Shown: positions 40,945 through 45,036 of the stretch, in pieces
Layout of the letters: each line of letters begins with the position of its first letter
Numbering within the stretch: position 1 is the stretch's first letter
From: Vicinamibacterales bacterium
GTDB lineage: Bacteria; Acidobacteriota; Vicinamibacteria; Vicinamibacterales; SCN-69-37
NCBI GenBank assembly: GCA_035512575.1
Contig: DATKDT010000078.1
Coordinates: 32,896 to 96,895 of the forward strand
Direction of reading: 5' to 3'
Length of the DNA stretch: 64,000 nucleotides
Notes under the pieces: generated by a model
What the model was told of the DNA's origin: nothing
Seen by the model: only the letters and a program-made list of their open reading frames with translations
Database searches by the model: none
Program-made: the position numbers and the translations under genes

Positions 40945-42036
40945 CTAGACGCGCCCGCGCAGCCGTTCGACCGCGGCGAGCGACACGTAGGTGTGGCGGC
41001 CGCGGCGCGTCGGCGAGAGACGCCCTTCGCGCAGCATGCGGCGGATCGTCAGCGTGCCGGTGCCGAGCGCCGCCGCGGCGGTCGCAATCGAGACCTCATC
41101 CGGCCGGATGATGCCGCGCTCGCTGCGATCGCCGCCGTCCATCAGCCCCCTGTTGATCGCGTGCGTCGCTTCGCGCAGCACGTCCTCGGGGCCGACGCCG
41201 GCCGGCATCACCTCCGTCCCGATCACCGCGATCGTCATCGTCACCGGCACGCGGCTGCCGTCGCGATGATCTTCGAGCACGAGCCACTGGCGCACGCTCA
41301 GGCGAAACCGCTCGGCCAGCATCGCCGCCGCTTCCGGCTCGGTGTCGGGCAGCACCGCGCAGAGCGTGTTGCCGTCGAAGCGCGTGAGCCAGTCGTGCAC
41401 GCGGAAGTACCGCCGGCTCAGGATGCCCACGCGCTCGAGCACGCGTTCGCTCGTGCCGGGGCCGAGCGTCTCGTCGAGCGCGTGCAGGCGATCGATGGCG
41501 ATCAGCAGCAGCGCGAGCGGGCGGCCGTGCCGTTCGGCGCGCGCAATTTCGTGCGGCAGCACGAGGTCGAGCAGGCGCCGCGTCAGCACGGTGGTGGTCT
41601 GGTCGTAGACGAGCTCGGGCGCCGCATTGAGCGCGGCCGCGTAGCGGGCGAGCAGGGTGAGCGTGCCGCTGCGGACGCGGTGCGCCACGAACGGCCAGGA
41701 GACCGATGTGGCGCCCAGATCGGGATCGGGCGCGAGCTCGTCGAGCAGCGCCCGCTCGACGGTGCCGGCCGCCTCGAACAGCACGGCCACGGGCACCCGC
41801 GAGGGGCTGATGGCCAGCAGCTCGGCGAGGCGGGCCTGGACCTCGCCGGCGGCCGAGCCTCCGGCCAGCGCCGCCTGGAGCCGGGCGCACGCGCCCATCG
41901 CGAGGCGCCAGCCTGCCGCGTCTTCCTGGTCCTCGGGGCGATACCGCTCGGCGTCGGCCTGAATGGCCGGGGCCAGCGCCCTCAGCGCATCGGCAAAGGC
42001 CGTGGAAGTCGCGGCTGAGACGAGTTCGTCAGCCAC
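40945..42036 (-). CDS. Degenerate GGDEF domain protein with C-terminal excisionase-type HTH
   Basis: DQTT.V..RR, LALLLIAID, RVHD-WLT-RF-DGNTL, VLPDT, VTMTIAV; C-terminal VSIATAAAALG...TIRRMLREGRL. Confidence 0.75.
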   Translation of the reverse strand: MADELVSAATSTAFADALRALAPAIQADAERYRPEDQEDAAGWRLAMGACARLQAALAGGSAAGEVQARLAELLAISPSRVPVAVLFEAAGTVERALLDELAPDPDLGATSVSWPFVAHRVRSGTLTLLARYAAALNAAPELVYDQTTTVLTRRLLDLVLPHEIARAERHGRPLALLLIAIDRLHALDETLGPGTSERVLERVGILSRRYFRVHDWLTRFDGNTLCAVLPDTEPEAAAMLAERFRLSVRQWLVLEDHRDGSRVPVTMTIAVIGTEVMPAGVGPEDVLREATHAINRGLMDGGDRSERGIIRPDEVSIATAAAALGTGTLTIRRMLREGRLSPTRRGRHTYVSLAAVERLRGRV

Positions 42037-42050
42037 GTCGACCGCAGTTT

Positions 42051-42113
42051 ACGCCAGTGTCCAGGCGTTCGCACCTGGACGCCAGTGTCCAGGCGTTCGC
42101 ACCTGGACGCCAG
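42051..42113 (+). repeat. Perfect 28-bp tandem repeat (2.25 copies), each unit a hairpin
   Basis: ACGCCAGTGTCCAGGCGTTCGCACCTGG at 42051 and 42079, plus ACGCCAG; stem GTCCAGG/CCTGGAC. Confidence 0.9.
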
Positions 42114-42243
42114 GGGCCCGGCGGACGCTAAACCTTGCACCCCGCTGAGCCGACAAGCTTTACGCCCGTGCGCTCCCGCCTCGACGGCAGAGCCGTTCGC
42201 GCCGCCGCGCATCTTGTGGTGAAATACAGGATCCCTAGCAACT

Positions 42244-44184
42244 ATGCGCAAGAAAATCGGTGAGTGCCTGATTCAAGCCGGGCTGATCACCGAAGACGAC
42301 CTGCAGACCGCCCTCACCGAGCACCGCCATACCGGCGAGCGTCTCGGCGCGGTACTGGTGCGCCTGAACCTGGCCACCGAGAAGCAGGTCACCAAGGCGC
42401 TCGCGTGGCAGCTCGGATTCCCCTATGTGAGCCTTGCCGACGACCCGCCGGACCCGAGCGTCATCACGCTCATCCCGCGCGAGGTGGCCGAGGAGCGCGG
42501 CTGCGTCGCGCTCAAGCTCGAGAAGAACCAGCTGACGATCGCGATGGCCGACCCGCTGCTGTTCAGCCTCGTCCAGGACCTCGAGTTCCAGACAGGCTTC
42601 CGCATCAAGCAGGTCGTCGCCACCAAGTCCGACATTCTCGAGTCGATCGGGACGGGCTATCCGGATCGCGCGCTGCAGCTCGCGCGCCGGCGCGACACCG
42701 AGATCGACGAGATCTTCGAGACGCCCTCCAGCCGCACGACCGGCGTGGACGGGGACGCCAGCGACGCGGCGCCCATCGTTGACCTGGTCGATCTGGTGAT
42801 CAAGGGCGCGGTCTCCAGCCGCGCCAGTGACATCCATATCGAGCCGGTCGAAAAGGGCGTGGTCGTGCGGCACCGGCAGGACGGACTGCTGCGCGAGGTC
42901 ATGAATCTGCCGAAGTGGGCGCACGAAGGGCTCGTCGCGCGCATGAAGGTGATGGCGAGCATGGACATCGCCGAGAAGCGCCTGCCGCAGGACGGCCGCC
43001 TGCGCGTGACCGCCGAGGACGGCCACGACGTCGACTTCCGCGTGTCGACGCTGCGCACGCTGTTCGGCGAGAAGATCGTGCTGCGCGTGCTCGACCACCG
43101 CAAGGGCGCGCCGCCGCTCGAGGAGCTCGGCATGTCGGCGGCGGGGCTCGAGGAGCTGCGCTTCTTCCTGCGCCACCAGCACGGGATGATCCTCGTGGTC
43201 GGCCCGACCGGCAGCGGCAAGACGACCACGCTGTCGTCGGCGCTGACGTCGATCCGCTCCGGCAAAACGAACATCATCACGATCGAGGATCCGATCGAGT
43301 ACCAGATTCCCGGCGTCAACCAGACGCAGGTCAACGAGAAGGCGCGGCTCACGTTCGCGAGCGCGCTGCGCGCCACCCTGCGCCAGGATCCCGACGTCAT
43401 TCTCGTCGGCGAGATCCGCGATCAGGAGACCGCGAAGGTTGCGATGCAGGCGGCCCAGACGGGCCACCTGGTGCTGTCGACGCTGCACACCGACGATGCG
43501 CCGTCGACCACGACGCGGCTGATGGACATGGGACTCGAGCCGTACGTCATCGGCTCGGCGCTCGTCGGCGTCGTCGCGCAGCGGCTGGTGCGCCGGCTGT
43601 GCCCCAACTGCCGCCGGCAGTTCACGCCTCCGGCCGACACGCTCCGGCTGCTGCACATCACGGAGGCCGACGCCGCGGCGATTCCGTTCTACAAGGCGGT
43701 CGGCTGCGACGAGTGCAGCCATACCGGGTATCGCGGGCGCATCGGGATCTATGAGGTCATGCGCGTCACCGAGCGCGTGCGCCGGATGATCGCGCAGAAG
43801 GCCGGTGAAGACACGATTCGCGAGGCGGCGCTGGCGTCGGGGATGCTGAGTCTCGGCGAAGACGGCCTCGCGAAAGTGAAGGCCGGCGTGACCACGCCCG
43901 AGGAGCTGCTGCGCGTGGTCACCGAGGTGCGCGAGATGCGCACGCTCTGCGGCGGCTGCGGCAATACCGTCGCGATCGACTTCGTCGCCTGTCCGTCCTG
44001 CGGCCACCGCCTGCAGAACTCCTGCGGCAAGTGCAGCCGCACGCTGCAGCCCGGGTGGAATTTCTGCCCGTACTGCGCGTCGTCGTCCGAGCCGAAAGCG
44101 TCCCGGAAATCGAAGCGGCAGCGCGCGGGCGACCCGAGCGAGCTGCCGGCGCCCACCAGGGTCTCGGAATTCAAGAAGGCGTGA
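42244..44184 (+). CDS. GspE/PilB family ATPase with N-terminal MshEN domain and C-terminal double zinc ribbon
   Basis: KIGECLIQAGLITEDDL..AL and RLGAVLVRL...ALAWQ; ASDIHIEP, EKRLPQDGR, GPTGSGKTT, RQDPD, TGHLVLSTLHT; two internal CxxC and four terminal CxxC. Confidence 0.9.
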   Translation: MRKKIGECLIQAGLITEDDLQTALTEHRHTGERLGAVLVRLNLATEKQVTKALAWQLGFPYVSLADDPPDPSVITLIPREVAEERGCVALKLEKNQLTIAMADPLLFSLVQDLEFQTGFRIKQVVATKSDILESIGTGYPDRALQLARRRDTEIDEIFETPSSRTTGVDGDASDAAPIVDLVDLVIKGAVSSRASDIHIEPVEKGVVVRHRQDGLLREVMNLPKWAHEGLVARMKVMASMDIAEKRLPQDGRLRVTAEDGHDVDFRVSTLRTLFGEKIVLRVLDHRKGAPPLEELGMSAAGLEELRFFLRHQHGMILVVGPTGSGKTTTLSSALTSIRSGKTNIITIEDPIEYQIPGVNQTQVNEKARLTFASALRATLRQDPDVILVGEIRDQETAKVAMQAAQTGHLVLSTLHTDDAPSTTTRLMDMGLEPYVIGSALVGVVAQRLVRRLCPNCRRQFTPPADTLRLLHITEADAAAIPFYKAVGCDECSHTGYRGRIGIYEVMRVTERVRRMIAQKAGEDTIREAALASGMLSLGEDGLAKVKAGVTTPEELLRVVTEVREMRTLCGGCGNTVAIDFVACPSCGHRLQNSCGKCSRTLQPGWNFCPYCASSSEPKASRKSKRQRAGDPSELPAPTRVSEFKKA

Positions 44185-44220
44185 TCGTGATCGCCCGCCT
44201 GCCGTGAGCGAAGCCGAACG

Positions 44221-45036
44221 GTGAAGGACTACTACACCCTGCTCGCGGTCGACCCCGGCGCGACCATCGACGACATCAAGCGCGCCTTCCGCCGCGAGAT
44301 CGCCCGCTACCATCCCGACAAGGTCCATCACCTCGGCCGCGAGTTCCAGGCGCTGGCCGCCGAGCGCGCCGCCGAGCTCACCGAGGCCTATCGCGTGCTG
44401 ATGGACGCGAGCCTGCGCGCCGCGTACGACGAGGAGCGCGGCAAGCCGACGGGCGCCGAAACCGCGTGGCGGCCGCCGGCGCCGCCCGAGACTCCGGCGG
44501 CGGAGCCGCCGCCCGGCGCCGCGCGCGCCCGCGCGGAGGCGCCGCCCGAGCCGCCGCCGCGGGAGGCAAAGCGCCCGCAGGCCGACGGCGGCGGCACGTT
44601 CGTCCGGCGCATGGCGATCAACAAGATCCGCAACGCCATCGAGCGGGCGCTCGAGGGCGTGACGTCGATGCCCGCGCCGGGCTTCGAGGCGGGCTATCTG
44701 GTCAAGGGGAAGCGGTCGCTGTTCGGCAAAGCGGTGCCCGAACGGGTGCTGACGGCGTATGTCGGAAGCGTCACGGCCGGCGCGGTGACGTCGCTCGGCC
44801 AGCAGGCGCTGGCGGCGCGCGGCGCGGTCACCGCGCTGACGGTGTTTGCCCTCGGCGAGAGCGTGGGCCCGGCGCCGGAGATTTCCAGCGCGGTGACCGC
44901 CCTCAAGCGCCGGGCGCCGGCCGGCGTCACCCTCAGCGTGGTGCCGCTCAACGTGCGCGACTGGAGCGCGATGATGCCGAAGGACGCCTCGGCCAACGCC
45001 CGGTCCGTCATCGCGCAACTTACGGCGAAGGACTGA
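44221..45036 (+). CDS. J-domain (DnaJ-like) protein with Pro-rich linker and unknown C-terminal domain
   Basis: DYYTLL.V...A...DIKRAFR......HPDK...EAYRVL.D...R..YD. Confidence 0.85.
   Translation: MKDYYTLLAVDPGATIDDIKRAFRREIARYHPDKVHHLGREFQALAAERAAELTEAYRVLMDASLRAAYDEERGKPTGAETAWRPPAPPETPAAEPPPGAARARAEAPPEPPPREAKRPQADGGGTFVRRMAINKIRNAIERALEGVTSMPAPGFEAGYLVKGKRSLFGKAVPERVLTAYVGSVTAGAVTSLGQQALAARGAVTALTVFALGESVGPAPEISSAVTALKRRAPAGVTLSVVPLNVRDWSAMMPKDASANARSVIAQLTAKD

Follow-up and report, generated by a model that had tools for sequence, protein, structure and literature searches.

Three neighbouring genes in a 64,000-nucleotide stretch of DNA from a Vicinamibacterales bacterium of the phylum Acidobacteriota (assembly GCA_035512575.1; positions 32896-96895 of contig C78 of genome G000, here called the window) make up the core that survives in this genome from an MSHA-like type IV pilus cluster whose other parts have been lost. 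The first gene (40945..42036, minus strand) encodes a regulator of 363 amino acids, for which domain, motif and structure searches indicate a globin-fold N-terminal domain, a catalytically degenerate GGDEF domain with an intact I-site and an excisionase-type helix-turn-helix (HTH). Divergent from it lies the gene of a PilB/MshE-type ATPase of 646 amino acids (42244..44184, plus strand), with an MshEN domain, intact ATPase motifs, a double zinc ribbon and a conserved ELP...EFKK tail, followed by the gene of a 271-residue J-domain protein (44221..45036, plus strand), made up of a J-domain, a proline-rich linker and a C-terminal alpha/beta domain predicted to have a restriction-endonuclease-like fold. 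A sequence-only reading of this DNA had proposed the genes as a candidate module for cyclic di-GMP (c-di-GMP) reception, and profile searches, alignments and the loci of relatives confirm all three genes and the domains and motifs described for them, and show that they are conserved as a group. Judged from its sequence, the system appears to be an MSHA-like/PilB variant with a candidate new family of c-di-GMP receptors, in which a globin and an I-site GGDEF domain are combined with an optional HTH.

The origin of the three genes is visible in relatives, where the same slot holds a secretin gene and genes for an ExeA-like ATPase, a TPR protein, a PilM(-PilN) protein and PilO/MshK-like proteins. 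MshL is the best family for the relatives' secretin in 3/3 cases (139-202 bits against a cut-off of 250), and profiles of the neighbouring genes match MshK, MshM and MshN of Aeromonas (E 1e-8, 9e-59 and 7e-7), whose msh genes were identified in a record without annotation from their order and sequence. Neither Aeromonas MshI nor MshJ was matched significantly by profiles built from the PilM-like and the PilO-like gene, and the labels PilM-like and PilO-like are based on weak matches to PilM (E 2-4e-7) and PilO (E 0.03) together with position. A complete cluster occupies the slot in one family of the order (f3), with pilins and, in 4 of the 5 loci examined, PilC; its ATPase has no zinc ribbons and forms a separate clade. 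These f3 loci (L207:1-16200, L208, L209, L219 and L221; L and G numbers denote loci and genomes of the order) contain several pilins along with PilC, an ATPase of their own clade, a PEP-CTERM-like gene and a response regulator of the sigma54 type, and sigma28-type promoters stand before their secretin and PilM-like genes.

The genome of the window has lost the secretin, ExeA-like, TPR and PilM-like genes, and the regulator, ATPase and J-protein remain; neither a secretin nor a PilM-like gene was found in this genome, which is 85.5% complete and in which the locus is contiguous. Of its genus mates, G428 still has the PilM-like gene, whereas a secretin is retained in G429. In a set of 150 further genomes from the order, 13 contain both a secretin and the ATPase-J pair, 22 (10 of them of f3) only the secretin and 11 only the pair at the threshold used, one of the latter (G077) having a secretin by another query. 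The PilM-like gene lies directly upstream of the ATPase, under the same promoter, in 20 of 57 distinct ATPase loci, and 30 of the 52 loci with a visible upstream side have the regulator without a PilM-like gene; these loci come from related genomes and are not independent observations, and the figures count loci, not loss events along a species tree. No match to PilC or a pilin was obtained by tblastn in the 57 loci. Likewise, no pilin, PilC or secretin is present among the flanking genes examined around the window's locus (30000-56000 listed), as had been claimed, and such genes are located on contigs C31 and C40. The description of the ATPase as an orphan holds only locally and obscures that these genes are what is left of an MSHA-like cluster.

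Elsewhere, the genome encodes a canonical pilB-pilT-pilC-pilS-pilR-pilA locus (C31), a type II secretion system (T2SS)-like locus (C40) and a PilB-type ATPase of a cyclic nucleotide monophosphate (cNMP) type (C23). The latter (G000:C23:3-2144, also at L192:5847-7892) has an N-terminal cNMP-binding-like domain, groups with a cyanobacterial PilB (support 96-99, quick trees) and may, by its domain content, represent a second nucleotide-gated spare motor. Further lone PilB-type ATPases are found at L189:4633-6480 (G131) and L198:4629-6341 (G079). In G011 (one contig), G131 and G136, three to four PilB-type ATPases are accompanied by two PilC, which supports the earlier idea of an alternative motor.

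The three genes are inherited together. The J gene occurs in 24 of the 150 genomes and the ATPase ortholog in the same 24 (21 through the search and three as frameshifted copies seen in the loci), while the regulator occurs in 21 of these and in 0/126 others, the next matches being GGDEF-only (E 2e-18). The three genomes that have the pair and no regulator are G011, G035 and the fragmented G013. Within the family of the window, the regulator is present in 3/3 genus mates against 0/33 other members; one of the mates, G427, is an unpublished genome and enters no other count. Synteny agrees with the predicted co-location: the J gene follows the ATPase in 56/57 loci, while in the remaining one the contig ends first. 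Of the 52 distinct loci with a visible upstream side, 48 have the regulator, which is divergent in every locus that has it. Eight loci (L093, L094, L211-L215 and L217) keep the secretin, ExeA-like, TPR and PilM-like genes, contain no ATPase, PilC or pilin, and have lost the J gene and also the regulator, which lies on the other side; the regulator therefore tracks the ATPase rather than the operon. This pattern fits a dependence of the regulator on the ATPase, although one deletion may have taken the regulator and the promoter together. Horizontal spread of the module is not supported, as only members of the order matched among 301 genomes of the phylum, and where a record bears a different taxon label the flanking genes are mostly the same. 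The ATPase has a ratio of nonsynonymous to synonymous substitution rates (dN/dS) of 0.055-0.09, the regulator one of 0.19-0.21 and the J-protein one of 0.24-0.32, compared to 0.12-0.14 for the neighbouring gene acs; between two genomes that both have no PilM-like gene it is 0.09 for the ATPase and 0.12 for acs. The three genes are under purifying selection and are not decaying.

The GGDEF domain of the regulator (Pfam, residues 143-296, 63.1 bits with a cut-off of 23.8) belongs to an AlphaFold model of three domains with a predicted local distance difference test (pLDDT) score of 86 and matches the fold of PleD (VIA Z 24.2, root mean square deviation (rmsd) 2.4, 176 aligned). The RVHD sequence (residues 212-215; 41392..41403, minus strand) and the DGNTL sequence (residues 221-225; 41362..41376, minus strand) align column for column with the RxxD of the I-site and the GG(D/E)EF of the active site (A-site) of WspR and DosC, in agreement with what the sequence-only reading had noticed. 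R212 and D215 are completed by R243 and R166, which gives the counterparts of R359, D362, R390 and R313 of PleD (offset 147, deduced from the ranges that matched); PMC7288161 names these as the four residues of the I-site and describes the roles of the GTP-site residues. Among 50 orthologs, R212 and D215 are found in all 50, R243 in 45 and R166 in 47, so that the expected conservation of RxxD was borne out. GG(D/E)EF is found in 0/50, and the family thus does not have the signature of an active diguanylate cyclase. At the A-site positions the window protein has A180, D188, E197 and N223, and in its 41 close homologs R212, D215 and R243 are kept in 41/41 and D180, N188, D197 and D223 in 0/41. 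The DGNTL motif itself is a trait of this clade and not of the family, since the site is commonly GEDSI-like in other lineages: 76 distant homologs, mostly from one lineage, have GEDSI in 74 cases and retain the GTP/Mg ligands. The I-site that is kept while the GTP site is lost is the best evidence that the regulator would be a c-di-GMP receptor. Three further GGDEF domains are encoded in the genome, with the motifs GGDEF, GGEEF and AGDEF.

The regulator's N-terminal domain (residues 1-137; 41626..42036, minus strand) had been overlooked in the earlier description. It matches the globin domain of DosC (VIA Z 12.1, rmsd 3.2, 129 aligned) and a globin-coupled sensor of B. pertussis (Z 11.6), and across several globin folds Z is 10.5-12.1, which is middling for a helical domain. 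No haem histidine is conserved, as histidine reaches at most 16/50 in any column of the domain, and the N-terminus is predicted to be a haem-less globin. At the other end, residues 316-358 (40963..41091, minus strand) match the excisionase-like HTH_17 of Pfam with 26.8 bits, just below the cut-off of 27, and 3/4 tested orthologs score above it; the HTH is present in 32/50 orthologs and nearly unchanged within the genus of the window.

The ATPase begins with an MshE-type c-di-GMP motif of 53 residues (4-56; 42253..42411, plus strand), which scores 61.6 bits with NF053729 (cut-off 38). Aligned to Aeromonas MshE, to which the ATPase is 39% identical, it shows the twin 24-residue motif with a 5-residue spacer and retains the hydrophobic core, the feature that matters most in the motif as defined in PMC5013675. 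Receptor anatomy for c-di-GMP is thus supported, at the level of predicted domains, for both the regulator and the ATPase. A motif search confirmed the intact GspE/PilB motifs, namely Walker A at 320, Asp box at 346, Walker B at 386 and His box at 412, with the usual tetra-Cys, and the four additional CxxC at 569, 583, 594 and 608, which match Pfam DZR with 32 bits (cut-off 27.3). This double zinc ribbon (43948..44076, plus strand), the second half of which can be aligned to the one ribbon present in a cyanobacterial PilB, has its eight cysteines invariant in 33/33 sequences, and the ELP...EFKK tail motif is nearly so. Scores remain below the curated cut-offs for PilB (TIGR02538, 592 vs 676), GspE (TIGR02533, 560 vs 630) and TfpB (476 vs 850), and the base of the tree differs between quick trees.

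The J-protein, correctly placed after the ATPase by the sequence-only reading, has a Pfam DnaJ domain at residues 3-70 with its HPD at 44311-44319 (plus strand). HPD is present in 22 of 23 J-proteins of the set, and the separate C-terminal domain and lack of a DnaJ zinc finger give it a class C anatomy. The best fold match of the C-terminal domain (44584-45033) is the N-terminal domain found in the rhomboid YqgP (Z 9.2, rmsd 3.4, 126 aligned), an FtsH-binding adaptor, and the next are restriction-endonuclease-like folds with Z 7-8; a restriction-endonuclease-like fold is predicted on the basis of these models. Pfam and PDB sequence searches gave no name for this domain or for the regulator's N-terminal domain, of which distant relatives may exist outside the order. 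A complex prediction for the C-terminal domain with the ATPase (score 0.01, mark 0.32) was counted neither for nor against an interaction.

A conserved promoter of the predicted sigma28 (FliA/WhiG) type precedes the ATPase. In the window, TAAA-N16-GCCGACAA (42128..42156, plus strand) begins 116 nt before the start codon, has one mismatch to the flagellar consensus TAAA / GCCGATAA (PMC8325347) with a spacer of 16, and recurs in the genus mates G428 and G429. The bipartite motif was found by a k-mer search of 29 intergenic regions. Its strict form occurs on the sense strand of 36/70 upstream regions (some duplicates), which are the training set of the motif, and on the antisense strand of none; all 52 strict matches in 1.26 Mb precede genes of the cluster, and the 16 that do not belong to the training set stand before the secretin (13), an MshK-like gene (two) and an ExeA-like gene (one). 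The copy in the window scores low (8.9) on a matrix built from other lineages. A FliA/WhiG-type sigma factor is encoded in 145/151 genomes of the order, that of the window included, where its gene (G000:C152:31476-32366) has a PAS sensor kinase on one side and a response regulator on the other (29976-34512); a flagellin search in this 85.5% complete genome found none. The intergenic region also contains a 28-bp tandem duplication (42051..42106, plus strand; sequence comparison), which was rejected as a conserved operator: G428 has a single related copy and G429 none, so the repeat is a recent local duplication. In G428, an insertion of about 2 kb separates the regulator, which is intact, from the promoter of the PilM-like gene (L233:9150-11100).

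From co-inheritance, cluster position, gene losses, the lack of a dedicated PilC, purifying selection and the bipartite promoter motif, we infer a mechanism in which the three genes may well act as an accessory motor, gated by c-di-GMP, that attaches to one or the other of the cell's two further pilus or secretion platforms. A FliA/WhiG-type sigma factor would transcribe the ATPase and J genes from 42128-42156, and c-di-GMP would bind the MshEN domain and switch the hexamer on, as in MshE. Without a PilC of its own, the ATPase would work, like TfpB, as a second motor on the base of either the canonical PilC/PilM system or the T2SS-like one, and the J-protein would bring DnaK to it for assembly or exchange. 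The regulator would be a globin-dimerised receptor in which c-di-GMP cross-links the GGDEF domains at the I-site, and would sense the same signal and tune the ATPase-J pair, for which it would exist, acting on the divergent promoter in proteins that have an HTH, as here, and probably also by protein contact.

Several observations weigh against this mechanism. The main objection is that an extension ATPase generally works with its own machine only (PMC11656802), which counts against the borrowing of a platform. The ATPase is 41-42% identical to the ATPase in the MshE slot of f3 and 43-46% to canonical PilB, and its grouping with the f3 ATPase has a support of 70 in one quick tree and is split apart in the other. 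Of its two MshEN-like motifs, which the profile match upholds, the first half-motif carries K in place of R and H in place of Q, a correction to the earlier description; K also begins the second half-motif of Aeromonas MshE. The canonical PilB of the genome likewise has an MshEN-like start, so gating by c-di-GMP may not be unique to this ATPase. The promoter has a spacing of 16, compared to 15 in E. coli FliA promoters, and a genome-wide scan found no regulon above shuffled background (10 matches vs 9-19). The regulator is absent from G011 and G035, and position alone proves little, as the whole chromosomal block is syntenic. Finally, the HTH is missing in 18/50 orthologs (around three of these seem to have been truncated in assembly), and the k-mer search of the 29 intergenic regions gave no conserved element besides the promoter. 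The C-terminal HTH thus stands for the window protein and falls as a family-wide trait; DNA binding is optional for the family, and a DNA-binding sensor controlling the ATPase is therefore not an invariant core of the system.

The same specificity of extension ATPases gives some weight to a different, rather unlikely explanation, in which the ATPase no longer drives a filament and has become a signalling scaffold switched by c-di-GMP and ATP, the ribbon and tail recruiting the J-protein, the regulator or an RNA/DNA-binding factor. This would account for an ATPase that is kept and constrained in the 30/52 loci that have the regulator and no PilM-like gene, where platform, pilins and alignment proteins are gone. 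The PilB of M. xanthus, which reportedly has a role in the control of exopolysaccharide, offers a parallel, and the cyanobacterial ribbon with which the second ribbon aligns recalls PilB1, whose C-terminal tetra-Cys domain binds Hfq (PMC4390875). Yet all motor motifs and the MshEN_C region remain conserved where the PilM-like gene is gone (mean identity 0.71), which suggests a conserved docking partner. Hfq was rejected as partner of the zinc ribbon, and with it that version of the scaffold fails, because it was not found in the genome of the window or in 4/5 module-bearing genomes (5/6 searched). That the ATPase is instead the dedicated motor of the MshL-like secretin and the PilM-like anchor, of which the window genome holds a decaying relic, seems improbable. 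The secretin does accompany the pair in 13/24 genomes, and the PilM-like gene shares the promoter in 20/57 loci and persists in the genus mate G428, but 22 of 35 secretin-bearing genomes have no such ATPase, 11/24 ATPase genomes have no secretin at threshold (G077 being positive by another query), and dN/dS is still low after loss of the anchor, unlike that of a relic.

Two further explanations concern the regulator. There is only a small chance that it is a conventional c-di-GMP-responsive transcription factor acting solely on the divergent sigma28 promoter, as the sequence-only reading supposed, or a neighbour with an unrelated regulon. The layout is divergent in every locus with a regulator, the HTH is kept in 32/50 orthologs, and the order of globin, GGDEF and HTH parallels that of MabR (PMC11617747), but orthologs that have no HTH retain the I-site and the gene position, no operator motif was found in the intergenic regions searched, and the regulator never occurs without the ATPase and J genes (0/126 genomes). 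Very improbable is that the GGDEF domain of the family is mainly a GTP sensor or a weak cyclase, with the I-site merely for feedback control. D180, N188 and D197 (D327, N335 and D344 of PleD), residues with roles described in PMC7288161, are indeed conserved in 47/47 orthologs outside the genus of the window, yet GG(D/E)EF is found in no ortholog, and the clade of the window has lost these residues while keeping the I-site, so this explanation cannot apply to the window protein.

Compared to known systems, the locus is closest to the MSHA type IVa pilus of Vibrio and Aeromonas (mshI-J-K-L-M-N-E-G and pilins), with which the relatives share an MshL-best secretin, MshM-, MshN- and MshK-like, PilM/PilN- and PilO-like genes and an MshEN ATPase, and f3 also PilC and pilins. 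It differs in the gene order of the relatives' cluster (L-M-N...I-J-K-E), in an ATPase with a double zinc ribbon that forms a separate clade without PilC or pilins, with a J gene after and a sigma28-type promoter before it, and, in the window, in the loss of L, M, N, I, J and K. A second extension ATPase for one pilus, TfpB of Acinetobacter baylyi (PMC11656802), is likewise a supernumerary PilB-type ATPase away from a platform gene; the window ATPase reaches just 476 of the 850 bits of the TfpB cut-off, has an MshEN domain, a double zinc ribbon and a linked J-protein, and does not group in the tree with the Acinetobacter sequence taken as TfpB-like. Cyanobacterial PilB1, with its Hfq-binding domain in Synechocystis, also has a zinc ribbon appended to a pilus ATPase, but a single one, and is described as the main motor beside pilT-pilC (PMC4390875).

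For the regulator, the nearest architecture is that of MabR/PucR-type proteins, with non-haem globin, GGDEF-like domain and HTH in the identical order, a combination called specific to Actinomycetes in PMC11617747; the host of the window belongs to the Acidobacteriota. The window regulator differs in a true Pfam GGDEF domain with a full I-site instead of GGDEF_2 (found at only E 0.0065 in one ortholog), and in a dispensable HTH_17 instead of the PucR effector domain and PucR-type HTH. With DosC-type globin-coupled sensors it shares the globin fold and not the conserved haem histidine. Degenerate-GGDEF receptors of c-di-GMP include PopA, PelD and SgmT, which similarly retain a c-di-GMP site in an enzyme-dead domain but have other partners than globin and HTH_17. 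In the FimX-PilZ-PilB system FimX regulates a PilB (PMC8389850), as the window regulator might through a putative contact with the ATPase, though here no EAL domain or PilZ adaptor takes part. WhiG/sigma28 control of type IV pili in Rubrobacter also involves a flagellar-type promoter before pilus genes and links to c-di-GMP (PMC8325347), in a different phylum and with the consensus CTA-N2-(G/C)-N15-RCCGAMA. A literature search covering titles and abstract openings, with most subscription journals and supplements outside its scope, gave no description of a GGDEF domain with an excisionase HTH, of pili in Vicinamibacterales or Acidobacteria, of a J-protein with a pilus ATPase or of a zinc-ribbon PilB that matches this system. 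MshEN family tables in paper supplements may already list the ATPase; new here are the motor that outlives its secretin, the regulator anatomy of a predicted haem-less globin with an I-site GGDEF domain, and the predicted sigma28-type promoter.

The flanks of the module are shared with relatives. The acetyl-CoA synthetase gene acs (38955-40940) lies in most relatives inside the pilus cluster, between the TPR gene and the regulator, and not in f3 or G011. On the other side, 45096-45782 encodes a MacB/LolD-like ATP-binding cassette (ABC) ATPase that is 81-87% conserved in relatives, has no adjoining permease and is also found at module-free sites, at five of which acs directly adjoins it.

Why bacteria keep extra PilB-type ATPases is named as an open question in PMC11656802. 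The Vicinamibacterales offer a natural deletion series in which motor and machine come apart inside a single order, and indeed inside a single genus, and identify the parts that travel with the motor: the J-protein always, and a predicted c-di-GMP receptor nearly always. Three soluble proteins and one promoter are thereby provided that bear on chaperone control of a pilus motor and on sigma28 control of pilus genes, in a lineage of abundant and little-studied soil bacteria. It is conceivable, though we consider it doubtful, that a pilus ATPase freed from its machine has here been combined with a double zinc ribbon, an Hsp70 co-chaperone and a globin-GGDEF receptor into a sigma28-controlled, doubly c-di-GMP-gated switch, either a chaperone-driven device for motor-swapping or a signalling device. 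If this is true, the locus would contain the first J-protein dedicated to a pilus ATPase, as far as literature searches reach, and a new family of c-di-GMP receptors.

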